Source: a virus
Taxonomy: Duplodnaviria; Caudoviricetes
Direction: 5' to 3' (one strand)
DNA length: 53,639 bases
IMG/VR virus record: IMGVR_UViG_3300021225_000313
Coordinates: 1 to 53,639 of that record
Shown: positions 36,722-53,098 of the stretch, one piece after another
Layout: every line of letters begins with the position of its first letter
Numbering within the stretch: the stretch's first letter is position 1
Translations under genes and position numbers: made by a program
The notes under the pieces: model-generated
The model's database searches: none
What the model was told of the DNA's origin: nothing
The model's input: only the letters and a program-made list of their open reading frames with translations

Positions 36722-36798
36722 AAAATTTTTTTTTCACTTTTGACCTAATTTTTGGATTTTTAGAAAAAAATTAAAAAATTTTTTTTTCACTTTTGACC
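36710..36798 (+). repeat. perfect 36-bp direct repeat
   Basis: GAAAAAAATTAAAAAATTTTTTTTTCACTTTTGACC at 36710-36745 and 36763-36798. Confidence 0.85.
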
Positions 36799-36887
36799 AG
36801 GAAAGTCAAGTTTTCAGATTTTTTTTAAAAAAATTTCTGTTAGGGGATTGACCCCCGTCCTAAGACCTTGAAAAAACACATATATAA

Positions 36888-36968
36888 GGGGGGATACGGA
36901 GGGGGAGGGGGGTATGTTCCTTGGCAGGAGGGGGGTTAATAGGAAAGGGGGGACGTATATGTCCCCCC
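36888..36968 (+). other. G-tract cluster ending in a hairpin
   Basis: Five runs of 5-6 G; GGGGGGAC-gtatat-GTCCCCCC hairpin at 36947-36968, probable terminator of 36977-37492. Confidence 0.7.
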
Positions 36969-36976
36969 GTTATCCT

Positions 36977-37492
36977 TTACAGGATTTCGTATTTGATTCC
37001 GTTCATGGATACCTCTTTAAGGGAGTCAATCATGAAGGATTTCGGGTCATGTTTGTTTACCTGAGGTTGACGGGACGTTTGGGATTTCTTTACCTCAAAG
37101 GAAACGAAAACGTTTCTGTCAATCGGATTTCCCTCAAAGGTATATTCCGATTTGATGTTTGAGGTATCGAAGGTAAAGTATTGAAGGTAATAACGATTCA
37201 ATTTTTCATTGAATTGTACACACTTAGAAACGTGGTCACCTACCTTACATTCCTCAGATACAAAGGTACGTTCCATACCCTCTTTTTCCATACGGTTATT
37301 AACCATATCCTCATAAGACCCCCCGATAAAGTAGTTACCCTTTGAGGTCTTAAATACCTTGTCAAAGTAAGGATTTCCACCTTTGTTCATCCGTACTTTC
37401 GTTTCTGAAACGATATTAACAAAAGTAGGTTTGTTAACATTTTTCAGGATTTCGAGGATTTCTGTCTTTGATACTTTCATTACGTTACTCAT
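36977..37492 (-). CDS. early-type hypothetical protein (paralog of 48646-49218)
   Basis: 171 aa, no Ala; shares MNKxGNP and NxxEKEG motifs; own minus-strand promoter at about 37513-37544. Confidence 0.8.
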   Translation of the reverse strand: MSNVMKVSKTEILEILKNVNKPTFVNIVSETKVRMNKGGNPYFDKVFKTSKGNYFIGGSYEDMVNNRMEKEGMERTFVSEECKVGDHVSKCVQFNEKLNRYYLQYFTFDTSNIKSEYTFEGNPIDRNVFVSFEVKKSQTSRQPQVNKHDPKSFMIDSLKEVSMNGIKYEIL

Positions 37493-37728
37493 AGTGTGTT
37501 TGTTTGTGAATACAAAACTATAACCTTTATTTCAATCCACCAAATTTATTTTTAGTTTTTTTGAAATTATTTTTTGGGTATGTCTTTTTGATATTTCCAA
37601 ATTTTTGGGTCTATTTTTTTTTCAAAACTTCTTTGGCGACCCCCTCAAAAAAAGTTTGAAAATAGTTGAATTAATTTTTGGTAATATGAAATATCCATTT
37701 TATCTTTGAGTTCTAAATCACACACACC

Positions 37729-37995
37729 ATGAAAGTAAATGTTGTCTTCTCTTTCATCCACATGACGGACAAAAGTAATAATGATGTACCCGTTTGGGTT
37801 CCTCAAGGAACGATGTCCCAATCCTTTGAGATGGAAACCGATATCGAACAAATCTTGAATAACCTGAAACGGTTTAACTTTATCGTAATGAATAAGATAG
37901 GTAATGAATTGGTTGATATCAATAATACTTACGGTGACAATTTTAACCGATACGAATATATCGACCACGAAGTATTCGAATGTGTCCCCGAATAG
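37729..37995 (+). CDS. early-type hypothetical protein
   Basis: Promoter upstream; terminator GTCCCC-gaata-GGGGAC-T8 overlapping the stop; no Ala. Confidence 0.75.
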   Translation: MKVNVVFSFIHMTDKSNNDVPVWVPQGTMSQSFEMETDIEQILNNLKRFNFIVMNKIGNELVDINNTYGDNFNRYEYIDHEVFECVPE

Positions 37996-38310
37996 GGGAC
38001 TTTTTTTTATTTCCCCCGTGAATGTTCCTTGGCAGGTTTGACGTGATTAGAGACGTTTTAAGACCGTTTACCCGTGTTTGTGTGTGTTGACCTTAATTGA
38101 GGAATAAACGTTCAGGAAGGGGTACAGAATCAATCCACAGATGAACTGAAACAATATCCATTCAGGTGGGGATGAATTGACCATTCGAACGTGGATTTTA
38201 GGTGGGGGTATCCTATCAACCCCGCCAAAGAACTTTTCGAAAATAAATCACGTCTGAAATTTGGTAGTTTCATTTCTCCCGTATATCTTTGTATTCTAAA
38301 TCACACACAC

Positions 38311-38511
38311 ATGACCACACAACAATTCGTTGAGAAGTACAGAATGAGGAGAAAAGACCCAAAAGACCTGAAAAGGGAGGTGGAGATTGGAATCCTCTCA
38401 AAACTATCTGACCTTCAGATGTTTTGTGGTGAAAATGACAGAGTATTCATCAACCACATCAAAGAGTTCGTAAGTGACTACTTTGAAATAGAAGAAACCC
38501 CCTCCGAATAG
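38311..38511 (+). CDS. early-type hypothetical protein
   Basis: Start trimmed to MTTQQF after the promoter; terminator follows; no Ala. Confidence 0.7.
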   Translation: MTTQQFVEKYRMRRKDPKDLKREVEIGILSKLSDLQMFCGENDRVFINHIKEFVSDYFEIEETPSE

Positions 38512-38627
38512 GGGGTTTTTTTTGTTCCTTATCCAACCTCGCCAAAGAAATTTCTGAAAATAAATTCAAATAAAATTTGGTAGTTTCAAATGTTCTTTAT
38601 ATCTTTGAGTTCTAAATCAATCACACC

Positions 38628-38789
38628 ATGTGTAACGTCATCAACACCGTCCTTTGGATTGTAGGAATCCTCATCATGATTTGGTCCATCATGGGGTTCG
38701 TCATGTTCTACGAACAGTATCGTATCAGTGAGTACAAGAAAATTCGGAGGAAGTGGAGAGAGTTTGACGAACAAAACACCCCTGAATAA
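38628..38789 (+). CDS. 53-aa membrane protein absent from the ORF track
   Basis: MCNVINTVLWIVGILIMIWSIMGFVMFY...; flanked by promoter and terminator. Confidence 0.7.
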   Translation: MCNVINTVLWIVGILIMIWSIMGFVMFYEQYRISEYKKIRRKWREFDEQNTPE

Positions 38790-38905
38790 GGGGTTTTTTT
38801 TGTTCCTTATCCAACCTCGCCAAAGAAAATCCTTCAAAAATATTTGGTCTGAAATTTGGTAGTTTCAAATGTCTTACATATCTTTGTATTCTAAATCAAA
38901 CAAAT

Positions 38906-39145
38906 ATGACTGAAACATTCATGACATTCGGGAGTACAAAAAGTGACACTTTCAGACAGTTGAAGAGTGGTCATTGGGTGGGTGATACATGGGGAGGTAA
39001 AACCTTCACATCAGTTGAGAAATTTGAAAAAGGTTCCACGGGAGGGGAACGGTTCAGGGATATTGAGGTGAGGGAGTCCACAGAGGAAGAAAAAAAGGAG
39101 TTCACGGACATCCTAATTTTTAGGATTAACAAACCGTCCATCTAA
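38906..39145 (+). CDS. early-type hypothetical protein
   Basis: Promoter-ORF-terminator unit; no Ala. Confidence 0.7.
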   Translation: MTETFMTFGSTKSDTFRQLKSGHWVGDTWGGKTFTSVEKFEKGSTGGERFRDIEVRESTEEEKKEFTDILIFRINKPSI

Positions 39146-39269
39146 CCCCGAAAGGGGTTTTTTCTTGTCTTACACTCAACCCCGCCAAGGAAATATCACC
39201 AGATAAAGTTTGTCTGAAATTTGGTAGTTTCAAATGTCTTACATATCTTTGTATCCTAAATCAAACGAT

Positions 39270-39479
39270 ATGTTACAAGATGTTTGGACAGAAGAAGGAA
39301 TGGAGGGTGAAGAATTGGTTGTCGGACAAACCACGGGTTGTGGATGTTGTACGTACAATGTCCACGGAAAGGTGAGTGTCACAGATGAACTGAAAAACAA
39401 CATGAAGTTTATCCTGAAGTCGTGTCAGATTTTGGGTATCACCCTTGAAGAACTTAAAACAATGGTGGAAGAAAAATAA
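39270..39479 (+). CDS. early-type hypothetical protein (GCGCC amino-acid motif)
   Basis: Start trimmed to MLQDVW after the promoter; no Ala. Confidence 0.7.
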   Translation: MLQDVWTEEGMEGEELVVGQTTGCGCCTYNVHGKVSVTDELKNNMKFILKSCQILGITLEELKTMVEEK

Positions 39480-39643
39480 AACAAGATATTCGTGTGTTTT
39501 GATTTGGAGTCCTACCCGAAAGGGTGGGATTTTTTTTTGGTATTACACCCAATCCCGCCAAAGAAGTTTAACCAGAAATAGTTCGTTCGAAATTTGGTAG
39601 TTTCAAATGTCTTACATATCTTTGTATTCTAAACAAACATACT

Positions 39644-39787
39644 ATGAAAATCAAGACACACAAAGGGTACAAGAGAGATGAACAAGTAAACCAAGGGATG
39701 TACGATGGACGTTTCCGTCCCAAGGTGGTAATGGACAAAAAGAAAAAGGAAAACAAGTTCGGATGTCGGAAAAAGTGGGGGGAGTGA
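39644..39787 (+). CDS. 47-aa basic protein absent from the ORF track
   Basis: MKIKTHKG...GMYDGRFRPKVVMDKKKKE...; directly after the promoter. Confidence 0.7.
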   Translation: MKIKTHKGYKRDEQVNQGMYDGRFRPKVVMDKKKKENKFGCRKKWGE

Positions 39788-39984
39788 AATCCCTTCACTT
39801 TAATATGACACGTAAACATATTGTCGTGTCGTGATTTAGACGAGACCCCTGTCCGATGAGGATGGGGGTTCTTGTTTGTGGTAACTGACCCAACCTCGCC
39901 AAAGAAATTTCTGAAAAAAAAGATGAATTAAAATTTGGTGGATTCAAATCTATGATATATCTTTGTATCCTAAATCAATCACAT

Positions 39985-40176
39985 ATGAAGTACATTATCG
40001 TTTGTCTCCTGATGTTTGTAGTGTTCACCCCTATGTACATTTGGTACGGGTTAAAGACCATTTGGAATTGGGAGGTGGATAAAAACATTCACGAATTAAA
40101 CGGAGTTGTAAGAAGAAGGACATTCTACACAAAAAGAAAGTTGTTCCCTCAAAAACATTACCCGACTATGTATTGA
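39985..40176 (+). CDS. small membrane protein
   Basis: MKYIIVCLLMFVVFTPMYIWYGL; unit architecture. Confidence 0.7.
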   Translation: MKYIIVCLLMFVVFTPMYIWYGLKTIWNWEVDKNIHELNGVVRRRTFYTKRKLFPQKHYPTMY

Positions 40177-40310
40177 AAACTAACCCCCTGAAGAAGGGGG
40201 TTTTTTTTGTTTCACATCCAATCCCGCCAAAGAAGTTTTTTCAAATAAATCTGAAATAAATTTGGTAGATTCAAATATTCATTTTATCTTTGTATTCTAA
40301 ATCACACAAT

Positions 40311-40688
40311 ATGAAAAAGACGTATCTCCTTCAGTACAAGTTTTCAACGTCCAAGGGTATCTATACCAACGGATGGAAAATCTGTACCTTGAAAGTAAAC
40401 CTGAAAAAAGTTTCCTCATGTATGGGAGGGGGTTATGACATGAAAGGAACAAATTTGGGGAATTGGATTGAAAAAGAATTTCAGGAAGAACTGAAGACCC
40501 TCGACCCTCGAAAGTATTACGGAATGTCATATGATGAAGACGGTACGGTAATCCTCAACGGTTCGTGTGGGTTCACCTCAATGGAATCAATCCTCAACGG
40601 GTTGGGGTACAAAATCAATCAACTCCCAACCAAAGGAAGTAACAAATTCCTTGATATGTCCAACGACTTTGAAGTGACCCCCATATAA
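40311..40688 (+). CDS. early-type hypothetical protein
   Basis: GGGYDMKGT motif; unit architecture; no Ala. Confidence 0.75.
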   Translation: MKKTYLLQYKFSTSKGIYTNGWKICTLKVNLKKVSSCMGGGYDMKGTNLGNWIEKEFQEELKTLDPRKYYGMSYDEDGTVILNGSCGFTSMESILNGLGYKINQLPTKGSNKFLDMSNDFEVTPI

Positions 40689-40804
40689 GGGGGTTTTTTC
40701 TTTTTATACCCGTAACCCGCCAAAGAACTTTTTTCAAAAATAGTTTCTCCAAAGTTTGGTAGATTCAAATATTCATTTTATCTTTGTATTCTAAATCACA
40801 CACT

Positions 40805-40924
40805 ATGACTGAATATGGACCCACCTTCGACATCATTGTGACAATCGTTGAAATTGTTTTGGGGGTTGTCGGACTTTATTGTTTCTATCTAATAGACAAA
40901 GAATTGAAAAAAATATACAGATAA
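40805..40924 (+). CDS. 39-aa membrane protein absent from the ORF track
   Basis: MTEYGPTFDIIVTIVEIVLGVVGLYCFYLIDKELKKIYR, directly after the promoter. Confidence 0.6.
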   Translation: MTEYGPTFDIIVTIVEIVLGVVGLYCFYLIDKELKKIYR

Positions 40925-40953
40925 TTGAAAAATTAAAATTAAATTCATATATT

Positions 40954-41091
40954 ATGAAAAAAATAATCTTTTTGTTTTTTATTTCCTTTGTTTTTTCATC
41001 GTGTCTTACAACAATGACAAGGGTTGGGAATTGTAAATATTATTACCGACCTTCAATGAAGGATAAAAAATGGAGACATTTAAGTTATTAA
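40954..41091 (+). CDS. small putative lipoprotein
   Basis: MKKIIFLFFISFVFSSC lipobox-like signal. Confidence 0.6.
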   Translation: MKKIIFLFFISFVFSSCLTTMTRVGNCKYYYRPSMKDKKWRHLSY

Positions 41092-41092
41092 C

Positions 41093-41440
41093 ATGGATAA
41101 ATTTACATCAAGTGGTTACGTCTATGGACTTGACCAAAACGGGGATGAAACGACCCGTTTGACCCCTAATTTTGAGTCTGACAATTATGACGACCTAATC
41201 CTTCAAATAAACGAAAGTCTTGAAAATGGAACCCTAATAAAAGAAGGTACTCTTCAAAAGTTCCTTGGCGCGGTTATGTACATCGAATCGACCAAACAAG
41301 GGGAAGACGGGAAAACAAACTTCATAAGTAATTACGTAGAATTTGGAGAATTGACAGAATCCCAATCAGACATAATTTATGAACAGATTTTCAAAGAAAT
41401 GTTTGACGGTTGGGATGACCCTGCCAATGAAATACTATAA
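41093..41440 (+). CDS. early-type hypothetical protein
   Basis: Its only two Ala codons lie in or abut GCCAANGAA motif copies. Confidence 0.7.
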   Translation: MDKFTSSGYVYGLDQNGDETTRLTPNFESDNYDDLILQINESLENGTLIKEGTLQKFLGAVMYIESTKQGEDGKTNFISNYVEFGELTESQSDIIYEQIFKEMFDGWDDPANEIL

Positions 41441-41497
41441 AAATAATTCGTCCAAAATTTGGTAGTTTCAAATGTGTGATATATCTTTGTATTCTAA

Positions 41498-41887
41498 ATG
41501 AAACGACAGATGAACACTATCAAGAACATGATGGACAAAGGACAGAAACTGTTTCAGAACCTGTACGTGGAATTTCAGGGGGAAGACATTGTGTCTTTCA
41601 ATGTAATCCCAAGTGATTCATCCCTTGACCTTCAAACGGTTAAGTCAATCGTATCCGACTTGAAGGAACAAAAAATGTTTACCCTTCAGGAAGATGTCCC
41701 CCACATGGAATTAGGGGTATCGATTGAAAGAACCACACATTTCTCGAAATCCCCGTCCTATATCATTGAAACCTTTCACGTCAATTTGGAAGACATGGAC
41801 GATGAATATGGATTCAAAAGAAATTTGAACGTTCCGAAACCCCTTAATGAGTTCATCGGGGTGGACGAACCCGTTACGACTGTGTGA
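41498..41887 (+). CDS. early-type hypothetical protein (paralog of 48108-48506)
   Basis: Shared DVPxMExGV, IETFHxNL and DDxxGFxRNxNxPKPL; start may be 41510. Confidence 0.8.
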   Translation: MKRQMNTIKNMMDKGQKLFQNLYVEFQGEDIVSFNVIPSDSSLDLQTVKSIVSDLKEQKMFTLQEDVPHMELGVSIERTTHFSKSPSYIIETFHVNLEDMDDEYGFKRNLNVPKPLNEFIGVDEPVTTV

Positions 41888-42035
41888 TTATGTTTGTAAA
41901 ACCCTGATGTTTCTACATCGGGGTTTTTTCTTTCCCTTACCCAACCTCGCCAAAGAAATTTGGTAAAATAAATCTTGTTCAAAATTTGGTGGATTGGTAT
42001 AACTAACATATCTTTGTATTCTAAACAACAAACAA

Positions 42036-42380
42036 ATGACACAGTACGAAATTTGTATTACCGTTCAGTCAATTCTGAAACGTGAATTTGATGTAAAAGA
42101 AACGGTTGAACTTCTGAAAAAGTCCAAAGGTGTTTTCACCTATTTCTCATGGGGTGTGTCCAAAATGATTAACGTAAATAACAAGGGATTGTTATTGAAA
42201 GTGTCAGGACATCATCACAAAGGGTGGGTGTTGGTTACCCTCAATTATTCGGATTATTATGACGTACACATCATATCCAACAAAGGAGAGGTGAAGGACG
42301 AATTTACGGATATCTTTTTCACTGATTTGTGTGAAACGATTGATAACCGTATCGAAAGAATACCGATGTATAGAGATTGA
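42036..42380 (+). CDS. early-type hypothetical protein
   Basis: Unit architecture; no Ala. Confidence 0.75.
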   Translation: MTQYEICITVQSILKREFDVKETVELLKKSKGVFTYFSWGVSKMINVNNKGLLLKVSGHHHKGWVLVTLNYSDYYDVHIISNKGEVKDEFTDIFFTDLCETIDNRIERIPMYRD

Positions 42381-42523
42381 TTCATGGTGTGATTTAGATG
42401 GTGACCCCGACCCAAAAGGTTGGGGTTCTTCATTTGGTGTCACATCTCGCCAAAGAAATTTCCCAAAATATTGGGTTGTACTTCTCAATATTCCGTTTTA
42501 TCTTGTTGAAAATTAAATATCTT

Positions 42524-42652
42524 ATGACAAAGGAAATGATTTTAACAAAGATTAACCAAGAAAAAAAGATTGTAAGACGGTTGTGGAATTTATTTATATG
42601 TGTTTCCGTGTTTGTCTTGTTTTTCTTTTTATCTTTAATTATATTATCATAG
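42524..42652 (+). CDS. small membrane protein
   Basis: Start trimmed to MTKEMIL; C-terminal TM helix; degenerate promoter. Confidence 0.55.
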   Translation: MTKEMILTKINQEKKIVRRLWNLFICVSVFVLFFFLSLIILS

Positions 42653-42799
42653 GGTGTTAAGTTTGGAATCCCCTGGTGTGTCTACATCGGGGGAATTTTT
42701 TTGTCATACCCCGCCAAGGAAATTCCATGAAAAATAAATGAATTAAAATTTGGTAGTTTCAAATGTCTTACATATCTTTGTATTCTAAATCAATAACAC

Positions 42800-43000
42800 A
42801 TGATTGAAGTTTCAAGAAAGTCAGACCTCACGGGAAAGATGAACGTCATGACACTCAACACCACCAAGGAACAACTGAATCGGTATTACAACGGTGAAGG
42901 TCTTGTTCAGACTTTATTCCCACATCTCACTGTTGAGGAAAGGGAGTTCCTCAAGACGGGTATCACACCAAAGGAATGGAAAGATATGTTTGGGGAGTAA
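42800..43000 (+). CDS. small phage protein
   Basis: FPHLTVEEREFLKTGITPKEW motif; unit architecture. Confidence 0.75.
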   Translation: MIEVSRKSDLTGKMNVMTLNTTKEQLNRYYNGEGLVQTLFPHLTVEEREFLKTGITPKEWKDMFGE

Positions 43001-43117
43001 CAATCCCCTTTTTTTTTACCTTGTCATAACCTGCCAAAGAAATTTCTGAAAATAAATTGAAATTAAATTTGGTAGTATCAAATAATTGTTTTATTTTTGT
43101 GTTCTAAATCACACACC

Positions 43118-43357
43118 ATGACAACAATTAATGAAATCTTGTTAAACTTTAAAGAAGTAAAAATTCAAGAAGATGTTCACGAAATAGAGTTAAAGGGTTC
43201 ATTTTTATGGAACCACCGACATAACTATGGTGGATTTTTCAACTATGGAAATGAAAGAGGTTTATCTATTGATAATATTTGGATAACTTCTGAAACAGGG
43301 GATTGTCTATATGACCATATAACTATTAATGGATTTAAAGTTTACAAACAAAAGTAA
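43118..43357 (+). CDS. early-type hypothetical protein
   Basis: Start trimmed to MTTINE. Confidence 0.7.
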   Translation: MTTINEILLNFKEVKIQEDVHEIELKGSFLWNHRHNYGGFFNYGNERGLSIDNIWITSETGDCLYDHITINGFKVYKQK

Positions 43358-43429
43358 ATACAAAATATTCCATTCTTAATTTGGTAGTATCAAATAATTG
43401 TTTTATTTTTGTGTTCTAAATCAAATGAC

Positions 43430-43636
43430 ATGGAACTAAACACAAAGGAAAAAGTTAAAGAACACGTTGAATTTGAATTTGAACAAATGTTGGTTAAAGT
43501 GTACGAATCCAACAATGTTACAACGGGGGACATTTTACCCCATCAACATCTTCAATGGGAAGATTTGATTGAGAAAACGACAAACCTGTTCATGGAATTG
43601 TTGAACCAAAATAAAGAAATCGAAAAGGAGGTTTAA
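43430..43636 (+). CDS. early-type hypothetical protein
   Basis: Start trimmed to MELNTK; own promoter without the upstream motif. Confidence 0.7.
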   Translation: MELNTKEKVKEHVEFEFEQMLVKVYESNNVTTGDILPHQHLQWEDLIEKTTNLFMELLNQNKEIEKEV

Positions 43637-43743
43637 CCCTCCTTTTTTTATGACCTGCCAAAGAAATTTCTGAAAATAAATTGAAATTAAATTTGGTGGT
43701 TTCAAATGTTCTTTATATCTTTGAGTTCTAAATCAATCACACC

Positions 43744-44019
43744 ATGGGTATCAGAATCAGGAATCATTGGATTATCCCGACCGTCCACAACTTTGACGTA
43801 AAGTACAATGACTGTTCTTTGTCCGTTAAAGTGACCGTGGACGAAACAAAGGAAAGTTTCGAAACGTCTCTGAACTATGTTTTGGAGGGTTCTTTGACGG
43901 AAACCGAAATTGACGAGGTTCTTTCATATGTCCGAAAGAAAATCATGGATAACGAAAACCTTTTACCCACCTTCATTCCGATTGAAACCGTGGATGTGGA
44001 TGGATGTGAAGTGTTCTAA
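43744..44019 (+). CDS. early-type hypothetical protein
   Basis: Unit architecture; no Ala. Confidence 0.7.
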   Translation: MGIRIRNHWIIPTVHNFDVKYNDCSLSVKVTVDETKESFETSLNYVLEGSLTETEIDEVLSYVRKKIMDNENLLPTFIPIETVDVDGCEVF

Positions 44020-44150
44020 AAGAAGGGGAGAAATCCCCTTTTTTTCTTTTTTGTCCGTACCCTGCCAACGAACATTCCCAAAATAAATTCCTCCAAAATT
44101 TGGTGGAATGAAAATTAGGTTATATCTTTGTATCCTAAATCAAACATACC

Positions 44151-44660
44151 ATGATTATCACATCCGATTTTTCGAAGATTATTTCCACACCCGAACTGAA
44201 AGACAGTGTACGTGAAAAAATTTCCGAAGGTGAAGAGGTATTGAGTTTTTCATATACCGATTACGGTGGTGACTTTTTTGATAAAGTAGGAATCGAATAT
44301 TTTATCAAACATTATCCTGATAATATTGTATGGGAACATACAATCTATTCGGGAAAGAATGGAATCATTTTCGGTGACGTGGTGAAAGAATTTAAGGAAG
44401 AATATGAATCCTATCCTTTGGGATTTGATGACATTGAATCCTTTTATTACGAAATGACCAATGAAGTTGAACATGAAGACTTTACACGGTTCATTGAAGA
44501 CATAAAAAGTAAATATGTTGTCTCCGATGAATGTATGAATTGGTTAATCGATAATAAGAGTGGATATTATTCCATCACGACACAAGGGTTGGATTTTTGT
44601 TACTCTGACCTGATTAAAGAATTGGAATCGGAAGGATTGGTAACAAAAATTGAAGATTGA
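44151..44660 (+). CDS. early-type hypothetical protein
   Basis: 169 aa, no Ala; GAAA-loop terminator follows. Confidence 0.8.
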   Translation: MIITSDFSKIISTPELKDSVREKISEGEEVLSFSYTDYGGDFFDKVGIEYFIKHYPDNIVWEHTIYSGKNGIIFGDVVKEFKEEYESYPLGFDDIESFYYEMTNEVEHEDFTRFIEDIKSKYVVSDECMNWLIDNKSGYYSITTQGLDFCYSDLIKELESEGLVTKIED

Positions 44661-44798
44661 TAGACAGACCCGACCGAAAGGTTGGGTTTTTTTTTGTCTT
44701 ACATCCAATCCCGCCAAAGAAAATTGTGAAAATAAATTCAATTAAAATTTGGTAGTTTCAAATGTCTTACATACCTTTGTTTTCTAAATCAAACGAAC

Positions 44799-45002
44799 AT
44801 GATTATCGAACTTAATTCAGTAGGAAGTGTTGTGGATGACCAAACGTTGATGGTGTATCCCAAAAGACAAGATGGTACTATTGAGTACGGTGTGAACGGT
44901 GTACCCCTGATGGAAACCTGTGATGAATGGGTTGAATCCTTGGACGGGGATGACATCTTTACCGTAATGAAGTTGATTGAATCGGAAACAAAAAAGGGTT
45001 AA
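44799..45002 (+). CDS. early-type hypothetical protein
   Basis: Unit architecture; no Ala. Confidence 0.7.
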   Translation: MIIELNSVGSVVDDQTLMVYPKRQDGTIEYGVNGVPLMETCDEWVESLDGDDIFTVMKLIESETKKG

Positions 45003-45120
45003 CCCCCTTTTTTTTGTGTCTTACATAAACCTGCCAACGAACATTCCCAAAATAAATCCCGTATAATTTTTGGTATATTCAAATATTCGTATTACCTTTG
45101 AGTTCTAAATCACACACATC

Positions 45121-45384
45121 ATGGGTAACGTTCAAGTTTGTATCCTTAATAATGAGTCCGTTAATGACGTTGAACTCGAAAAATTCGTGATTGATGTCAA
45201 ATATAAGGACATTCACGACATTGTAAATAAGGTGGATGAATATTGTGATGAATATGAATTGGTGGATACATACGTCTATATTATTTCCGATGACTTTACA
45301 CGGGACGAAATAAATTACTTGGAAGATTATTGGGTATTCGTACACAGAACGGATGAAGAAGTTCGTTCAAAAATGTTTGCATAA
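45121..45384 (+). CDS. acidic early-type hypothetical protein
   Basis: Promoter upstream; single Ala as the last residue. Confidence 0.7.
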   Translation: MGNVQVCILNNESVNDVELEKFVIDVKYKDIHDIVNKVDEYCDEYELVDTYVYIISDDFTRDEINYLEDYWVFVHRTDEEVRSKMFA

Positions 45385-45439
45385 TATTTTTGTAGTCTAA
45401 AAAATCTATTATATTTTTACATTCAAAATCCACAACACC

Positions 45440-45946
45440 ATGTTACAGTCTATTGAAGAATTTATGACCCTTCATTCCAAACTGATTCAAAAGATGTTTC
45501 AAGACCTTGGAGAAATCAGACCTTTTTTGGTTCTGATGGGGGATAACGAAAAAGATTGTCAGGTAAAACCTGTTATCATTCCGACCATGTTTTTTGAAAC
45601 CGAAATCGGGAAAACATTTGTAAAATCTGTCATACTGAAAAAAGAAATTGACGAATTGAAAACTGATGGGTATGAATTGAGGTGTGTTTCATTCAGTTCA
45701 GAATGTTGGATGAAAAAAATCGTTGTGAACAAAGAAGGGATAAAAGTTGAAAAAGACATTGAAGTTGTTGTGGTGTCATACGAAATGAAAGGAGATTCGT
45801 TATTTCAAGTTTACGAAATCAAACGTAACATGAATATAACTGAAAACGGGTTGGAAGAAAAACCGACATTGGAATTGTGTGAAACAATATCGAATAACAA
45901 AAATGTTCACTTTGAAGGGATGATGACAAAACTATTCCAAGAGTAA
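45440..45946 (+). CDS. early-type hypothetical protein
   Basis: 168 aa, no Ala; weak similarity to 46087-46518. Confidence 0.75.
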   Translation: MLQSIEEFMTLHSKLIQKMFQDLGEIRPFLVLMGDNEKDCQVKPVIIPTMFFETEIGKTFVKSVILKKEIDELKTDGYELRCVSFSSECWMKKIVVNKEGIKVEKDIEVVVVSYEMKGDSLFQVYEIKRNMNITENGLEEKPTLELCETISNNKNVHFEGMMTKLFQE

Positions 45947-46086
45947 TACAAGAGGGGGGAGAAATCCTCCCTTTTTTTTGTCCACGTATTACCTGCCAAA
46001 GAATATTCGTGTCATATACACATCTCAAAATTTGGTAGAATCAATATATTGTAATACCTTTGTACCCACAAATAAAATAAAATTAA

Positions 46087-46518
46087 ATGTATCAAGTTCT
46101 GAAAAAAGTTGTTGAGAAACAAGTCATTCAAGAGTATCGAAAGAATGGAGTGGTGAAGAACAAGGTAATTCTCTTGGCACTTGATGAAGACGATACGATA
46201 TCCTTCTGTCATAAAGATTTACCAAAAAATGATGGAAGTAATGACGATGAATTTTTCGATAAGTTTGTGAAGACACAAAAGATTATCGACAAACTTGTTG
46301 TGAAGGTCTCAGAGGACGGTTATCGGGTTAAAACGATGGTGGTGGTAGATTATCATGAATCGGACACAGACGACTATATAAGTCTCTCATTTAAGTCAGG
46401 GAAGGGGTTCCAAAATGTGGTGAATATAAATTACTACATCCAAAAAACTCCCACGATGATATCGGATGATGGTGTGATGGTGGTCAGTCAACCAACATTA
46501 ATTGAAGTGTCAGAATAA
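46087..46518 (+). CDS. early-type hypothetical protein
   Basis: 143 aa; sole Ala lies in a TTGGCA variant motif. Confidence 0.75.
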   Translation: MYQVLKKVVEKQVIQEYRKNGVVKNKVILLALDEDDTISFCHKDLPKNDGSNDDEFFDKFVKTQKIIDKLVVKVSEDGYRVKTMVVVDYHESDTDDYISLSFKSGKGFQNVVNINYYIQKTPTMISDDGVMVVSQPTLIEVSE

Positions 46519-46657
46519 ATATAAATTCCCCAATAAAACGGGGAATTTTTTTTAAATATATTCACGGTGCCAAAGAATATATTAATAAAATAAGTACAAA
46601 AATATTTGGTAGTCTCAAATATCCATTATATCTTTGTATTCACAAAAAACAAAAACT

Positions 46658-46858
46658 ATGTTGGTAAAAGATGTAATCAAAGAACTGAAAAATGTTAGTC
46701 ACATTTATTCTTATGTGAAGTTCAACAAGAATCACGGTGAGTACGTGAGGGTGATGAAAATCGAACTCCTCAACGAAATCCTGAAGAACATGGATGAAAA
46801 CTCAAAAATCAAATGTGAGATTGATACCGAACAAGGGGTAGCCTACATCGGTGGATAA
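46658..46858 (+). CDS. early-type hypothetical protein
   Basis: Start trimmed to MLVKDV. Confidence 0.7.
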   Translation: MLVKDVIKELKNVSHIYSYVKFNKNHGEYVRVMKIELLNEILKNMDENSKIKCEIDTEQGVAYIGG

Positions 46859-46995
46859 GATAAATTCCCCTGACCGAAAGGTCGGGGGTTTTTATTTCCC
46901 CTCCAACCTGCCAAAGAAGATTAAAAAAATAAATCTGAAATAAATTTGGTAGTATCAAATGTCTGTTTTATCTTTGTATCCTAAATCAAAACAAA

Positions 46996-47517
46996 ATGAG
47001 TAGAATTAAATTAAAAAACATCAAGTTTTCGGAGTGGAATTCTGAAGAGACAAATTGTTTTCAGGCAGACATCTACTTCGACAATAAAAAGGTAGGGTTT
47101 TGTTCCAACGATGGACATGGTGGTAGTACATATTGTCAATGGATTGGTGTGGAAACCAAAGATAAGTTCATAGAGATGGAAGAATATTGTAAGACACTAC
47201 CTGACATTGTGTACAAGAATGAGGGACGTGAGGACTTCATAATGAAGAGTGATTTGGAGAACGTAGTGGATACGTTATTTGAAGAGTGGTTGGAACAAAA
47301 GAATAAGAAGAAGATGGAGAAGTACTTTGAGAAAGGTGTATGTTTCGGTACAAAAAACCAATACAGAATCAGTTCGTTCAAAAGTGGAGGTAAATTAATT
47401 ACAATTAGTCAGTTATGTGAGAGTATAGTTGGTCGGACTATGTTAGAGAAACATTGTGAGAGTTTGAAAAAACAAGGACACATCATCCTCAATACCAATC
47501 TTCCATTCAAAGTGTAA
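46996..47517 (+). CDS. early-type hypothetical protein
   Basis: SEETNCFQAD...NDGHGG motif; one Ala in 173 aa. Confidence 0.8.
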   Translation: MSRIKLKNIKFSEWNSEETNCFQADIYFDNKKVGFCSNDGHGGSTYCQWIGVETKDKFIEMEEYCKTLPDIVYKNEGREDFIMKSDLENVVDTLFEEWLEQKNKKKMEKYFEKGVCFGTKNQYRISSFKSGGKLITISQLCESIVGRTMLEKHCESLKKQGHIILNTNLPFKV

Positions 47518-47640
47518 GAAAAGGGGAACCACCCCTTTTTTTGTTACACAACCTGCCAACGAACATTATTCAAAAATACTTGGTCTAATATTTGGTAGTA
47601 TCAAATATCTGTTTTATCTTTGTATCCTAAATCAAAACAT

Positions 47641-48000
47641 ATGACAGACATTTTCAAATCAGTGAACGAAAGTATTTTCAAAGGGGTAAAAGGAATATCG
47701 TGGTACGATAAGGACGGTATCATGAATTTGGATGAAACAAGGTATGTTCGTTTTCTCCTTGACGATATCGGAACAAAAGACTACTATGTAGGTTATTGGG
47801 TTGAAGTCTACAATAGAAACAATGGATTGATATCCAAAAAGTTTTTCAGGTTTCAATATCACATGGAATTTATTCATCAACGTGATAATTATTATCACAT
47901 TTGGTATTATCGGGGTAATTTAGAATGGTACATATCAAGACCAAAGGATACCAAACAATATGTTAAAATCCTTATGGACTACATAGAAAAAATAAAATAA
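47641..48000 (+). CDS. early-type hypothetical protein
   Basis: Start trimmed to MTDIFK; no Ala. Confidence 0.75.
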   Translation: MTDIFKSVNESIFKGVKGISWYDKDGIMNLDETRYVRFLLDDIGTKDYYVGYWVEVYNRNNGLISKKFFRFQYHMEFIHQRDNYYHIWYYRGNLEWYISRPKDTKQYVKILMDYIEKIK

Positions 48001-48107
48001 GGGGGAAATCCCCTTTTTTTTATATCCGACCTGCCAAAGAAGATTTAAAAAATAAATTTGGTAAATTCAAATATACATTATATCTTTGTGTCCTAAATCA
48101 ATCGGAA

Positions 48108-48506
48108 ATGAATGTACTGTCAAAAATGTGGTTAGGGTTCAGACTTCCCCATCGTGACCTTGTTCTGACCTTCAAAGGTAAAGAGTTGGTAAATTATCGT
48201 GTGAACGAAAATGGACGGGAAGATTACACTCCCGAATTGGTTCGGGATTTGATTCAGGAACTGATTAAACAAGGTATGATTACCTTCTTTGATGACGTTC
48301 CGAACATGGAAGTGGGTGTACCCATCCATACAATCGGAATTGTCGATGAAGACGACCCCAAAGATGAAATTATGTACATCGAAACGTTCCATCGGAATTT
48401 GGATAACTTGGATGATGATTTTGGTTTTGAAAGGAATGTGAACATCCCCAAACCACTCCATGAGTTTTTGGGATTCCCGAAACCCATCAAAGATTCGGAC
48501 TACTAA
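48108..48506 (+). CDS. early-type hypothetical protein (paralog of 41498-41887)
   Basis: Shared C-terminal motifs; no Ala. Confidence 0.8.
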   Translation: MNVLSKMWLGFRLPHRDLVLTFKGKELVNYRVNENGREDYTPELVRDLIQELIKQGMITFFDDVPNMEVGVPIHTIGIVDEDDPKDEIMYIETFHRNLDNLDDDFGFERNVNIPKPLHEFLGFPKPIKDSDY

Positions 48507-48645
48507 AAGGAACGACCCGACCGAAAGGTTGGGTTTTTTCTTTTTCCCCTACATCGCGCCAAAGAAATTCTCAAAAATAAAATTGAATAAAATTTGGTGG
48601 ATTCAAATATGTCACATATCTTTGTATCCTAAATCAATAACGATT

Positions 48646-49218
48646 ATGGTTACAGATTATCAAGTACAAGAGTCCGTGAATGTTAAAGAAGTAACGACCA
48701 CGGAACTGACCAACATTCTCCTTCAGGTAGGGGTAACGGTTGACCTCAAGTCCGACTTTGTGAATGTAGTGATGGAAACCGAACCTTCCATGAATAAGAC
48801 GGGTAACCCGTTCATCGGGAAGGTGAAAAAACTTTCCTCACGGAACTACAAACTCCTCATGGACTACGAAAAAAGGGTACGTTCCAATGAAAAGAAAGAA
48901 GGGTTGACCCCCGACTTTGTTACAGAGAAACCCAAAGGTAAACATCACATTTCTCCCCTCGTTCTGTTGGACGATAAGACGGAAAGTGTCCACTACCTCA
49001 ATCTTGAGTATTTTGTGGAAGTGAAACCGATTGTGTCCTATTCCTTCAATGACCTTCCCATGACCAAGGAAGATGAGGGATTGATGAAACAATTCTTTGT
49101 AAAGAAGTATCAGAGTCAAAAACAGGAACAGGACAGGAAGGTGGAAGTTATCACACCGAAAATATCGAACATCAAACAGATGTCGATGGGTGGGGTGAAG
49201 TACATCGTCAAAAACTAA
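48646..49218 (+). CDS. early-type hypothetical protein (paralog of 36977-37492)
   Basis: Start trimmed to MVTDYQ; FVNxVxET, MNKTGNP and C-terminal SMxGxKY; no Ala in 190 aa. Confidence 0.8.
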   Translation: MVTDYQVQESVNVKEVTTTELTNILLQVGVTVDLKSDFVNVVMETEPSMNKTGNPFIGKVKKLSSRNYKLLMDYEKRVRSNEKKEGLTPDFVTEKPKGKHHISPLVLLDDKTESVHYLNLEYFVEVKPIVSYSFNDLPMTKEDEGLMKQFFVKKYQSQKQEQDRKVEVITPKISNIKQMSMGGVKYIVKN

Positions 49219-49287
49219 AACAAAGGGGGGTAATTCCCCCTTTTTTTATTATATTTGATTATTCGTTGGCAGTAATACAAAAACAAT

Positions 49288-49632
49288 ATGACCACATTTT
49301 TCTTAATCATCATCATCCTCACCCCATTAATATTCCTTGGCGCGATATGGGATAAATACACAAAACAAAAGGAGGAATTGATGTTCCTACAAAACATAAA
49401 TGAAAGTAATATCGAAATAATCAAACATCAATCCGATTTGATACGTATAAAGGACGAAATGTTAGTCCTCAATACGGAAACGATTAATAGGATGGATAGT
49501 ATGATACAGTCTCAGGAAGACATGATTAAGACCCAAAAGGAAGTAATACAAGAACAGAACGGTATCATTGATTCAAACATAAACCATATCAAGGTACTCG
49601 AAAATATTGTCAAGGTAAACGAATTCAGATGA
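49288..49632 (+). CDS. membrane-anchored coiled-coil protein
   Basis: N-terminal TM helix and 7-residue periodicity; sole Ala abuts a reverse motif copy. Confidence 0.7.
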   Translation: MTTFFLIIIILTPLIFLGAIWDKYTKQKEELMFLQNINESNIEIIKHQSDLIRIKDEMLVLNTETINRMDSMIQSQEDMIKTQKEVIQEQNGIIDSNINHIKVLENIVKVNEFR

Positions 49633-49737
49633 GTTCGTAGTACACGGACATGCCAAAGAAGTTTCCAAAAATAAATCTGATTAAAATTTGGTAGTTTCAA
49701 AAATACATTATATCTTTGTATTCTAAATCAAATTTAT

Positions 49738-50301
49738 ATGGGAGAAGTAATTACAGAAAAGGTTGTCGGTAACCACATTATTCGTACCTTTTATGACGAA
49801 TGTCCTTACAATCCCCGTGAGAACGACAATTTGGGAACAATGGTGTGTTTCCATAGACGTTATTCATTGGGTGATAAACATGACTACGATTCCAATGACT
49901 ACAAAGGTTGGGATGAAATGGAGAAAGCCATTATCAAAAATGAGAATGTCGGGGTTATCCTTCCCTTGTATCTTTATGACCACGGAGGAATAACAATTTC
50001 CACAAGTCCTTTCTCATGTCCATGGGATTCAGGACAAATCGGATTCATATTCATTTCCAAAAAGAAAATGTTGGAAGAATATGGAGGAAAGATTGTAACC
50101 AAAAAACTGAAAGAAAGGGTTGAGGGTTACTTGAAAAATGAAGTGGAGGAATATGACCAATACCTTCGGGGTGAAGTGTACGGTGTGAGGGTATTTGAAA
50201 AGGAATTGGATGAGGACGGGGATGATGTTGAAGTACATTCATGTTGGGGATTCTACTCGGAGGAGGATGCCATTGAGGACGGAATGTGTTATGTAAAATA
50301 G
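49738..50301 (+). CDS. phage hypothetical protein
   Basis: DNLGTMVCFH, LYLYDHGG and CPWDSGQIG; unit architecture. Confidence 0.8.
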   Translation: MGEVITEKVVGNHIIRTFYDECPYNPRENDNLGTMVCFHRRYSLGDKHDYDSNDYKGWDEMEKAIIKNENVGVILPLYLYDHGGITISTSPFSCPWDSGQIGFIFISKKKMLEEYGGKIVTKKLKERVEGYLKNEVEEYDQYLRGEVYGVRVFEKELDEDGDDVEVHSCWGFYSEEDAIEDGMCYVK

Positions 50302-50554
50302 TTTGTGTTTTGTTTGTTATACCCCTATCCGAAAAGGATGGGGGTTTTTTGTTGTTAACCCACAATGTTGTTTGGCATCGTATTACGTACATTTGTGTTC
50401 TGTGTAATTTGTTGTGGTTATTGATGTACTATCCCCTGGTGTTTCAACACTGGGGGTTTTGTATTACTGCCAAAGAAATTACAGAAAATAAATTCAAATA
50501 AAATTTGGTAGATTCAAATATTCGTTTTATCTTTGTATTCTAAACATAAACACA

Positions 50555-50791
50555 ATGGATAAAAAAACAATTAATAAAGTTTGGAATAAGTATCAAAAGA
50601 ATGAGTCAAATAACGACCATTCGGAGAATGTCTTATTACTCGCCAAAACATTTGGTACTGATGAGGATGTTGCTGAAGCAGAAGACATCCAACATAAACA
50701 TGATTCCATTGGATATATGACAACAGACCTTTTGAAAAGGAGGGATTTTTTACATAATAAATTTTATCCTATTCTTGTCCGTTTCAGATAA
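50555..50791 (+). CDS. hypothetical protein spanning the right edge of the GpC-poor zone
   Basis: Last TAnnTTTG promoter; ordinary Ala codons resume at about 50672. Confidence 0.7.
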   Translation: MDKKTINKVWNKYQKNESNNDHSENVLLLAKTFGTDEDVAEAEDIQHKHDSIGYMTTDLLKRRDFLHNKFYPILVRFR

Positions 50792-50823
50792 TTGTATTAC
50801 CTTTATATTCTAAAACAAACGAA

Positions 50824-51012
50824 ATGAAAAAGACGGTAACAATTTATGAGTTGTATGAAAAAGAGTTCAATCAGCCAACATTTATTGGGTTTCTGCAAGG
50901 TCATAGAACGCCTGACAGATTTCATGGGGTGACATTGAGCAAAAAAACCGCTGAACAGTGGGTGAAAAAAAGTGAAATGAATTATTATCGTATAAATAAA
51001 AGTGTAGAATAA
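50824..51012 (+). CDS. hypothetical protein
   Basis: TACCTTTA box at 50798. Confidence 0.65.
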   Translation: MKKTVTIYELYEKEFNQPTFIGFLQGHRTPDRFHGVTLSKKTAEQWVKKSEMNYYRINKSVE

Positions 51013-51064
51013 ATTTGGTAGATTGATATAAACGTATTACCTTTATATCCTAAAGATAAACAAA

Positions 51065-51229
51065 ATGAAGTATTTAGTAAGTTGGATAATTTGGGATAGA
51101 ACTAACCCTGAATGGAGACCTATTTATAAATTTCAAAAGTGTAGCACATTAATCAAAGCAAATAGAATGAAAACTAATCTATTAAAACAAACTTCTTTTA
51201 TAGAGGTAACAATAAGTGAAATAGTATGA
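51065..51229 (+). CDS. 54-aa protein absent from the ORF track
   Basis: MKYLVSWIIWDR...; promoter 51014-51045; ATGA overlap with the next gene. Confidence 0.6.
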   Translation: MKYLVSWIIWDRTNPEWRPIYKFQKCSTLIKANRMKTNLLKQTSFIEVTISEIV

Positions 51230-51528
51230 ACACACCTGTAAGTCCAAAATTAGATAAACTACTTCTTGATATGGGTATTGATATGCCTGTAAGCCCAACC
51301 ATTGCAGATGTTGTGATGTGGTTGTATGAGAAATATGGAGTTTGGATTGATGTTGATATCGAAGGAGAAGGCTTTGATATATTCTATTTTTTGGCATATA
51401 GAAACCATGAAGAGAGGGTTAAAGAGTATATGAAAAAATTAAATGACGAAAATTATCATACAAATTACAAAACGCCAAAAGAAGCATATGAAGCTGCAAT
51501 TGAATACACTCTAAATAATTTGATATGA
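51226..51528 (+). CDS. hypothetical protein
   Basis: PTIADVVMWL...TPKEAYEAAIEY. Confidence 0.7.
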   Translation: MNTPVSPKLDKLLLDMGIDMPVSPTIADVVMWLYEKYGVWIDVDIEGEGFDIFYFLAYRNHEERVKEYMKKLNDENYHTNYKTPKEAYEAAIEYTLNNLI

Positions 51529-51612
51529 ACAAAGAAATACTTGTAGAAGTTACTGTAAAATAAATTTGGCAGTTTAATATAAACGTATTACCTTTACATA
51601 AAATAACATATC

Positions 51613-51813
51613 ATGGAAATCTTAAAAGCAATTATTTTTTTTCTGAGCCTTATTCTTACAATTTTCTTTATTGGTAAATTGTTTTCATGGGGCGTTCATG
51701 AAATCAGTAATAAAGGTGTTAACAAAGTGACGGCAAATGATATCAATGAAGCAAATTTCTGTATGTTTGTCGCTTGTTGTGGATGGACAACATTGTATTA
51801 CCTATCATTGTAA
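51613..51813 (+). CDS. small membrane protein
   Basis: Two hydrophobic segments; promoter upstream. Confidence 0.65.
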   Translation: MEILKAIIFFLSLILTIFFIGKLFSWGVHEISNKGVNKVTANDINEANFCMFVACCGWTTLYYLSL

Positions 51814-51823
51814 ATGAAAAAAT

Positions 51824-52042: not shown

Positions 52043-52053
52043 ATTGAAATAAT

Positions 52054-53088: not shown

Positions 53089-53098
53089 AAAAAATAAT

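Follow-up and report, generated by a model that had tools for sequence, protein, structure and literature searches.

A promoter-tied upstream motif and a GpC desert in the predicted early region of an uncultured freshwater jumbo phage

Introduction

In T4-like phages, small composite cassettes known as PeSL (promoter-early stem-loop) units lie between non-essential genes whose function is unknown, with many repeats in a single region. As far as the available text of two reports describes them, these units combine a stem-loop terminator with G runs and C runs, an AT-rich stretch upstream and a strong host-type early promoter (PMC2839356; PMC4122927). Cassettes of this anatomy are found in the stretch analysed here, IMG/VR virus record IMGVR_UViG_3300021225_000313. 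The window, as we call this stretch, is the entire record, a single contig of 53,639 bp. Most of its cassettes carry an additional element, the nine-base motif GCCAANGAA, upstream of the promoter, and the region that they occupy is nearly free of the dinucleotide GpC.

Elements upstream of the core promoter are known from other systems. Class I activators bind outside the core promoter, as CRP does at sites at -61.5, -71.5 and -82.5. The UP element is A/T-rich and lies between about -40 and -60. To our knowledge, the control of transcription in Bacteroidota phages is almost unexplored outside the crAss-like phages. An initial annotation of the window had taken the motif for a binding site, at a phased upstream position typical of class I activators. 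Here we describe the motif, its promoters and the surrounding GpC desert, and weigh the explanations for them.

Results

Enrichment and spacing of the motif

The exact motif occurs 32 times in the window, against 0.97 ± 0.90 copies expected from 100 dinucleotide-preserving shuffles (maximum 4); the finding is real and beyond chance. Twenty-six copies are on the plus strand and six on the minus strand, and all of them lie within 36,917-52,172. The initial annotation had not noticed the motif left of 36.9 kb, and a scan of the genome record likewise found none left of 36,917. One-mismatch variants stood at background level everywhere in the window. The frequency of the motif is not equal across the genome: in the window, as in the relative G001 described below, copies are restricted to the early region. 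The motif is non-palindromic, its extended form is C-Y-GCCAA-N-GAA-y-a-T-T, and the GpC step reads GCC in all 32 copies.

The promoters behind the motif are of the Bacteroidota type, for which the available text of one report gives the consensus -33 TTTG / -7 TANNTTTG (PMC6847099). In the window the extended -33 box is TTTGGTAGTTTCAAAT and the -7 element is TATCTTTG, with an ATG about 19 nt downstream. TTTG-N-TAnnTTTG has 28 plus-strand matches, 26 of them at 37.6-50.5 kb, and sigma-70-type sites showed no enrichment (37 vs 48.8). Spacing was measured from the motif G to the first T of TTTGG in the TTTGG-N-TAnnTTTG promoter. Promoter positions were inferred from the consensus, with the G of TAnnTTTG placed at -5 and the first T of TTTG at -36.

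Twenty-five plus-strand copies lie in 38,224-50,507. In line with the count given earlier, 23 of these are at a spacing of 35 bp (n = 11) or 36 bp (n = 12), values that are not independent draws because the cassettes are paralogous repeats. The pairs 38224/38260, 39557/39593, 43657/43692 and 49652/49687 were correctly placed, as were the two exceptions, the copy at 48033 with a spacing of 24 bp and the copy at 42449 ahead of a degenerate promoter. The orientation relative to the promoter is identical for all 24 copies with a promoter at 24-36 bp. With this numbering the motif covers about -72/-71 to -64/-63. For spacings of 24, 35/36 and 46 bp (the last seen in G001) its centres fall near -56, -67/-68 and -78, in steps of about one helical turn. 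The geometry of class I activator sites, upstream of the core, on one face of the helix and at positions one turn apart, is thus present. The cassette region and its modules are:

36917-50535, plus strand: entire region of cassettes; its roughly 27 small genes each have a terminator, the motif, an A-tract and a -33/-7 promoter
38224-38291, plus strand: motif and promoter module, spacing 36 bp
38541-38607, plus strand: motif and promoter module, spacing 35 bp
38819-38886, plus strand: motif and promoter module, spacing 36 bp
39184-39251, plus strand: motif (GCCAAGGAA) and promoter module, spacing 36 bp
39557-39624, plus strand: motif and promoter module, spacing 36 bp
39898-39965, plus strand: motif and promoter module, spacing 36 bp
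40226-40292, plus strand: motif and promoter module, spacing 35 bp
40719-40786, plus strand: motif and promoter module, spacing 36 bp
41423-41489, plus strand: motif (GCCAATGAA) and promoter, spacing 35 bp; overlaps the 3' end of open reading frame (ORF) 41093-41440; no terminator upstream
41949-42016, plus strand: motif and promoter module, spacing 36 bp
42449-42520, plus strand: perfect motif, then degenerate promoter (TATTGGG ... TTTATCTTG)
42713-42780, plus strand: motif (GCCAAGGAA) and promoter module, spacing 36 bp
43033-43099, plus strand: motif and promoter module, spacing 35 bp
43657-43723, plus strand: motif and promoter module, spacing 35 bp
44064-44130, plus strand: motif (GCCAACGAA) and promoter module, spacing 35 bp
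44713-44779, plus strand: motif and promoter module, spacing 35 bp
45033-45100, plus strand: motif (GCCAACGAA) and promoter module, spacing 36 bp
45995-46062, plus strand: motif and promoter module, spacing 36 bp
46569-46636, plus strand: motif and promoter module, spacing 36 bp
46910-46976, plus strand: motif and promoter module, spacing 35 bp
47555-47622, plus strand: motif (GCCAACGAA) and promoter module, spacing 36 bp
48033-48088, plus strand: motif and promoter module, short spacing of 24 bp
48558-48624, plus strand: motif and promoter module, spacing 35 bp
49652-49718, plus strand: motif and promoter module, spacing 35 bp; no terminator upstream
50469-50535, plus strand: last motif and promoter module, spacing 35 bp; downstream, GpC is back to normal

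The motif belongs to the promoter

Each cassette runs from a hairpin with a C run and a G run, followed by a T run, through a variable pyrimidine-rich stretch to C-Y-GCCAA-N-GAA, the spacer, the -33 box and the -7 element. The promoter module is about 95 bp long and the motif is its promoter-distal element. The spacer measures 26 or 27 nt. The A-tract reported earlier in this gap is present as AAAAtAaA at +16..+23 from the motif G (-55 to -48) and AAA at +32..+34, just before the -33 box. Terminator-like sites, as predicted from sequence, number 62 against 10.9 ± 3.6 in shuffles, and those on the plus strand lie directly upstream of motifs. Across the 22 cassettes with a T run, the distance from T run to motif varies from 7 to 31 nt. 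Furthermore, the modules at 41423 and 49652 have no terminator upstream and still carry the motif at 35 bp. These results indicate that the motif is tied to the promoter and not to the preceding terminator.

We compared the conservation of the segments among the modules. Mean pairwise identity reached 0.95 in the motif, 0.86 in the -33 box and 0.96 in the -7 box; the spacer segments gave only 0.35-0.44 and the upstream flank 0.39. Twenty-two of the 23 spacer sequences are distinct and every one is 26 or 27 nt long. The length was thus kept and the sequence drifted freely, and the spacer bears the signature of selection on distance. In contigs from two sequencing runs, the module with the 24-bp spacing has a 20-nt insertion behind 48047 that duplicates its -33 box.

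The cassettes share with PeSL units a strong primary-sigma promoter, an adjacent stem-loop, an AT-rich upstream stretch and small genes of unknown function. Metagenome contigs join different cassettes (38617>50501, 40182>44668, 43109>46938, 46990>50485), and one joint, 47635>40201, is present in two runs of different studies. Such joints fit recombination at cassettes, as in PeSL; they are either real variants of gene order that arose in this way or assembly artefacts at repeats. In contrast to PeSL, the promoter is the Bacteroidota -33/-7 type and not sigma-70. Residence in a T4-like myovirus is not seen either, as no T4-like core gene was found among the window ORFs scanned. Two further features, the invariant element of 9-12 bp at its constant 35/36 bp from the -33 box and the GpC-purged regulon, do not appear in the available text on PeSL. 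For the glycosyltransferase in the left part of the window, the nearest phage matches come from jumbo phages of Xanthomonas and Stenotrophomonas; a 1,256-amino-acid (aa) ORF matches nothing but a 735-kb uncultured phage. Given these matches and the lack of a T4-like core gene, we regard the cassette as one that would work like PeSL, by analogy, and do not class it as a PeSL member.

A relative with motif copies and tandem arrays

Relatives were sought by DNA pattern in four scans (IMG/VR twice, JGI metagenome contigs and GTDB genomes). A single relative was found, locus L003, which is part of virus record G001 (79,457 bp, about 24% complete). Apart from it, the scans gave only single chance matches in IMG/VR, the metagenome contigs and GTDB. 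The Pedobacter matches, one conserved coding gene, were rejected as relatives. We also followed a shared 167-aa protein to 16 loci. One of these was G001 itself and the other 15 were rejected, being without the cassette; 13 of the 15 have a GpC observed/expected ratio of 0.95-1.13 and one (L238) of 0.74.

G001 and the window have only six weak protein matches, at 36-47% identity. G001 contains 21 motif copies against one for the backwards-read control, and 20 of the 21 lie at 65.6-79.4 kb, its high-G+C early block. At six of its promoters the motif stands at 35 bp, in one case with further copies at 81 and 127 bp; a seventh has it at 46 bp and again at 83 bp. Thirteen cassette promoters without the motif are interleaved with the motif-bearing ones. 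Perfect motifs ahead of degenerate core promoters were observed in both genomes, at 42449 in the window and at 2136 and 488 in L003.

Tandem motif arrays are present in G001 and absent from the window. They have a period of 46-48 bp and a super-period of 94 bp, with two to seven copies upstream of promoters (L003 488-770, 3020-3116 and 5520-5557, corresponding to about 65.7-70.8 kb of G001). Tandem Repeats Finder (TRF) gave a period of 46/94 and 4.8 copies. The largest array, with seven copies, lies at the far end of the early block, ahead of a degenerate promoter; it may be a cluster of the enhancer kind, an iteron array or a region resembling an injection stop.

Promoters of this type are just as dense in other Bacteroidota phage contigs, from which the motif is absent. 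The motif is therefore specific to the present lineage, and this argues for a reader that the lineage has to itself and against the host polymerase as such. An 11.5-kb IMG/VR contig (L113) of another Bacteroidota phage lineage has its own conserved box, GTTAAAAtnGGTTAAgGAA, directly upstream of -33 at about a dozen promoters. Bacteroidota phages may often have upstream boxes of this lineage-specific kind.

The cassette region is a GpC desert

The motif had been described as nearly the only GpC of the region. We counted 38 GpC in 38,200-50,600 (observed/expected 0.10), 28 of them inside the motif, at a normal CpG ratio of 0.85. The desert can be delimited as follows:

37500-49900, no strand: GpC desert, 0-2 non-motif GpC per 1.5 kb; flanks 10-36

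GpC is normal again where the cassettes end, and the remaining window is mildly depleted (0.39-0.79 in 3-kb windows). Among 1,058 3-kb windows of 242 other loci the GpC ratio had a minimum of 0.47 and a median of 1.12, compared with 0.07-0.11 in the desert. In the 27 early genes (2,762 codons), GC was found 8 times at codon positions 1-2 against 106.7 expected, twice at positions 2-3 against 76.2, and never across codon junctions against 77.1. AGC is used 0 times and AGT 36 times; TGC is used 0 times and TGT 37 times. In a gene set that differs slightly, the 26 ORFs behind cassette-type promoters, alanine makes up 0.4% of the proteins, compared with 2.5% in the left part of the window.

Non-coding DNA is purged as well. 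With the motif masked, the gaps from terminator to start site, which are probably untranscribed, contain 1 GpC against 33.1 expected. Three unique non-coding stretches at the left border contain 1 GpC each, the reverse motif, against 10.2, 8.2 and 3.9 expected. An explanation at the RNA level only, with a GC-cutting RNase from which the untranscribed motif is exempt, is less probable on these two results, although the gaps are repeats with transcription boundaries placed by prediction. The candidates considered for the selecting agent are a nuclease that acts on the DNA exposed first, a modification specific to GpC, a deaminase and an RNase. The purge of non-coding DNA favours an agent acting at the DNA level.

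In G001, the GpC ratio is 0.17 and alanine 1.8% for the seven genes behind motif promoters, as against 0.58 and 4.2% for the 13 behind motif-less promoters (one-sided Mann-Whitney p = 0.007; CpG equal, 0.84 vs 0.82). Therefore, in the second genome too, the motif marks GpC-avoiding transcription units. The link could reflect a shared regulatory class, or a shared ancestry of promoter-plus-gene modules that move together.

Avoidance of short sites extends beyond the cassettes. GATC is absent from the window (53.6 kb) and from G001 (79.5 kb), CCGG occurs 0 times and once, and GGCC 4 and 5 times, respectively. This strong avoidance of restriction sites, found in both phages, was not seen in the 15 other contigs encoding the 167-aa protein. 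The absence of GATC and near absence of CCGG show a phage lineage that relies on avoiding target sites.

Three described systems resemble the desert in part. In T5, EcoRI sites are cut only if they lie in the first-step-transfer DNA, according to the available text (bioRxiv 10.1101/866236). An early block of small genes that is exposed before protection offers a T5/T7-like model for the strongest avoidance of a target, but here a whole dinucleotide and not a restriction site is avoided. The interleaving of GpC-normal and GpC-poor units in G001 speaks against a simple explanation by the first segment to enter there. Two-step entry is an analogy here. In cytomegalovirus, CpG is suppressed in the immediate-early 1 gene to escape ZAP, as the available text relates (PMC7498042). 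There too one dinucleotide is purged specifically from first-expressed genes; unlike our case, that system concerns a eukaryotic virus, sensing of RNA and another dinucleotide, and here non-coding DNA is purged too. Among the phage systems described in the available text, only the hypermodification of GpC[C/T] by methyltransferase, TET and glycosyltransferase targets GpC in particular, mostly before C or T, and the motif offers GCC (PMC8256090; bioRxiv 10.1101/2023.12.21.572611).

None of the genes of the last system was found in the two fragments. Models PF00145, PF12851 and PF00303 (C5-methyltransferase, TET and thymidylate-synthase-like) had no match in the window or G001 fragments, which cover about 19% and 24% of the genomes, so that this absence weighs little; the TET model had no match in any control genome either. 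The PF20691/TAGT match in ORF 1287-3611 scored 18.5 bits, below the cut-off of 27.5, and three control bacteria also matched below the cut-off. A cluster of methyltransferase-domain proteins, glycosyltransferases and one dehydrogenase extends over 1287-13866, and its 774-aa ORF has weak, sub-threshold matches to families of DNA hydroxymethylcytosine glycosyltransferases (PHROG 842, E 2.6e-5; Pfam TAGT, 16-18 bits); the target may be DNA or glycan.

Reverse copies and promoters without the motif

The reverse copies at 41261 and 49333, for which a conjectural role beyond transcription had been suggested, had been placed inside genes, as they are, and they have in common a longer minus-strand context, CGCGCCAAGGAA. 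The plus-strand copy at 52164, the reverse copies at 36917, 37629, 38025 and 49262 and the motif-less promoters at 37677 and 43380 go beyond the earlier list:

36917-36925, minus strand: reverse motif behind the terminator of minus-strand gene 36977-37492; sole GpC of non-coding 36722-36976
37629-37637, minus strand: reverse motif in a divergent promoter region; sole GpC of 37493-37728
37677-37708, plus strand: first plus-strand cassette promoter; upstream only the reverse motif, no forward or one-mismatch copy
38025-38033, minus strand: reverse motif just past the terminator of gene 37729-37995; sole GpC of the 215-bp non-coding 38009-38223
41261-41269, minus strand: reverse motif inside ORF 41093-41440
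43380-43411, plus strand: cassette-type promoter without exact or one-mismatch motif upstream
49262-49270, minus strand: reverse motif between terminator 49222-49243 and the start of ORF 49288-49632
49333-49341, minus strand: reverse motif inside ORF 49288-49632
52164-52172, plus strand: stray motif without promoter inside ORF 52054-52284; possibly chance

The reverse motif at 37629 lies 36 bp from a minus-strand TTTGG and 93 bp from a good minus-strand promoter (37544-37513). Near 49262-49341, two reverse motifs are accompanied by a promoter-like box and a two-way hairpin, and these elements might form a tiny minus-strand transcription unit. Long G runs and C runs surround the reverse motif in the non-coding border 36850-36975, and a 180-bp stretch without ORFs (38040-38220) precedes the first forward motif. 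These two stretches could be a genome landmark (end or origin) or a small RNA.

Source of the window and its surroundings

The virus record is about 19% complete. In the left 36 kb the genes are largely on the minus strand and G+C is 22-34% (2-kb windows). Gene matches there include several endolysin-like proteins, one endonuclease VII-like protein, a thymidylate kinase and methyltransferase-domain proteins, besides the glycosyltransferase mentioned above. The block of about 27 small plus-strand genes at 36.9-50.5 kb has 30-39% G+C. To its right (50,555-53,639), no gene has its own promoter or terminator and GpC is at normal levels; Pfam and PHROGs searches of 10 ORFs right of the cassettes gave nothing usable. 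The ORFs 51226-51528 and 52317-52820 encode two of the six proteins common to the window and G001.

Words of the cassette block are present in 20 sequencing runs of 11 studies (aquatic, freshwater, sediment and viral metagenomes). In the one RNA run (X20), with contigs of depth 2.5-4.7, some contigs cross terminator, motif and promoter, which fits read-through and DNA carry-over alike, and the contigs reveal no transcription starts. A DNA search of 401 Flavobacteriaceae genomes for a clue to the host gave short low-complexity matches only. The aquatic and freshwater runs, the jumbo-phage protein matches and the completeness of the record mark the window as part of the genome of an uncultured freshwater jumbo phage, whose promoters are those of a Bacteroidota host.

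Discussion

We tentatively read the motif as a docking site with a fixed helix face, in class I activator geometry, which would be bound by a DNA-binding protein specific to the lineage and would mark an immediate-early gene set. The sequence-specific protein would dock on the predicted site at about -67, sit on one helix face and touch RNA polymerase at the host-type promoter. This contact would activate the promoters and give one co-regulated immediate-early gene set, which would have been purged of GpC with the motif left as almost its sole GpC. The anatomy of the element consists of enrichment, restriction to one region, orientation, phased spacing, constraint, conservation in a relative, arrays and the link to GpC-poor genes. 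The phased and orientation-specific position, the invariant core, the restriction to one gene class, the arrays and the retention on degenerate promoters argue for a protein bound to one face upstream of RNA polymerase. From this we infer protein binding, polymerase contact, activation and immediate-early timing. The likeness to CRP sites lies in a site outside the core that is specific in orientation and face, at positions about one helical turn apart; the differences are that no activator is known here, that the site is non-palindromic and that the cores are near consensus rather than weak. The phased binding site proposed in the initial annotation is, judged by this anatomy, a reasonable reading: it is promoter-tied, oriented, helically phased and conserved in the relative, but the near-consensus cores show no evident need of an activator.

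Several observations weigh against an activator docking site. Core promoters near consensus with an A-tract like a UP element are expected to be strong without help, which fits a shut-off operator equally well. A core that is weak without its activator, as in class I systems, is not seen at most promoters; degenerate cores are found only at 42449 and at two G001 promoters. Two cassette promoters of the window and 13 of G001 exist without the motif. The arrays repeat every 46-48 bp, which is no whole number of helical turns. Furthermore, the cassettes are paralogous, and the system is found in only two genomes, both fragments. None of the 28 early-region proteins searched for a binder matched Pfam at E <= 0.001; there were three weak matches at E 0.0046-0.005 and two to PHROGs, both of unknown function, and no protein resembled a repressor. 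The divergently transcribed 171-aa protein gave no lead, ESM Atlas included. Of the earlier proposal of a site for a co-injected phage protein or a host factor, the real and promoter-tied element is supported; no binding protein, co-injected or host-encoded, was identified.

Given that the core promoters look strong alone, the chief rival is a shut-off operator, on which an early-made phage repressor would bind and turn the strong early promoters down together after a burst; we hold it to be unlikely. Global repressors of this kind are known from plasmid regulons whose expression overshoots when the plasmid enters a new cell, such as KorB of RK2, and also from protein p4 of phage phi29 at promoter A2c. 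Near-consensus cores with A-tracts need no activator, one common site on about 25 promoters would permit coordinated shut-off, and the arrays of G001 could nucleate cooperative binding. However, the site is outside the core, centred near -67, where steric repression is impossible, the degenerate promoters retain the motif, and the early proteins include none that resembles a repressor. A direct contact with the host, either a far-upstream extension of the UP element read by the polymerase alpha subunit or a borrowed site of a host global regulator, would suit the need of early genes to fire ahead of any phage protein, and the motif adjoins an A-tract located where UP elements lie. This A-tract does fit a UP element, but the motif itself does not, as it has invariant G, C and C at -72 to -63, beyond -60. 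Bacteroidota phages with the same promoter type are without the motif, and the composite pattern was not enriched in five Bacteroidota genomes (29 matches vs 19 for the control, mostly coding-like and not promoter-like), a weak test because the genomes were arbitrary with respect to the true host. We consider host contact improbable. Readings by sigma-54 or an ECF sigma factor were dropped, as no second conserved box lies at the required distance.

It is just as improbable that the motif is a passenger without function of its own, spread and homogenised by recombination and gene shuffling within a mobile PeSL-like cassette. The cassette anatomy is that of PeSL, and metagenome contigs join different cassettes, though possibly as artefacts. 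Homogenisation would, however, keep spacer and flanks as alike as the motif, and the conservation profile (0.35-0.44 vs 0.95) makes a pure passenger role unlikely; the distance from terminator to motif is variable where that from motif to promoter is fixed, and the motif is retained in a relative with 36-47% protein identity in six matches. Least probable of the readings weighed is a site for a DNA transaction, such as a strand-specific nick, a replication iteron, a partition or condensation site or an injection-stop signal. The strand bias of 26 to 6, the reverse copies away from promoters and the G001 arrays of 46-48-bp period at the far end of the early region, which resemble the tandem regular copies of iteron and centromere arrays, are in its favour. 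A fixed spacing of 35/36 bp to the -33 box with steps of a helical turn is not expected of such a site, the window has no arrays, and the contigs showed no shared molecule starts or ends, which contigs cannot reveal in any case. A Chi-like reading was also dropped, since a Chi-like site would not hold a fixed distance to the promoter. A further alternative, which we think quite doubtful and slightly ahead of host contact and passenger, is an epigenetic mark. The GCC would be the one site per early promoter for a GpC[C/T] cytosine modification (methyl, then hydroxymethyl, then sugar), the packaged versus fresh-copy state would gate the promoter, and the regulon would otherwise avoid GpC to stay unmodified. 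This agrees with the 28 of 38 GpC of 12.4 kb that fall in the motif, with GCC in 32 of 32 copies, with the GpC-poor genes that accompany motif promoters in G001 and with non-coding DNA that is GpC-free except for the motif. Phage C5-methyltransferases partnered with TET mainly recognise GpC[C/T], in the available text of PMC8256090, and GpC-limited modification hints at roles beyond defence in that of a preprint (bioRxiv 10.1101/2023.12.21.572611). Against it are the lack of matches to the three modification models, which weighs little, the sub-cut-off TAGT score, shared by control bacteria, and the window-wide avoidance of GATC and CCGG, which points to target-site avoidance and not to modification. 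Of the uniquely modified or uniquely recognised GpC proposed in the initial annotation, the almost sole GpC is borne out, and no modification gene was found in the two fragments. A modified GpC and a bound protein are mutually compatible.

With the docking site as the tentatively preferred reading, the desert and the motif could also be two halves of one system, a proposal that we regard as rather unlikely. A GpC-directed activity (virion-DNA modification, or a host or phage nuclease or deaminase) would meet the incoming genome. The immediate-early genes would have shed all their GpC, even at the cost of proteins without alanine, and one would be kept at -71 of each promoter as a recognised, perhaps modified, on/off mark. 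If this were true, a single dinucleotide mark would gate a class of promoters, and the purge of a dinucleotide would have altered the protein composition of a phage.

In this phage a single, sharply defined cis-element marks the whole early gene set. What is new is a cis-element variant of the phage early promoter-terminator cassette that is coupled to the extreme purge of one dinucleotide. The purge is unmatched in the 1,058 comparison windows and is strong enough to remove alanine from about 27 proteins, which implies that a strong GpC-directed pressure acts on the first-expressed part of the phage genome. Identifying the agent, whether it defends the host, serves the phage as a weapon or modifies DNA, could bring to light a new layer in the conflict between phage and host, and would explain why one GpC is kept per promoter.

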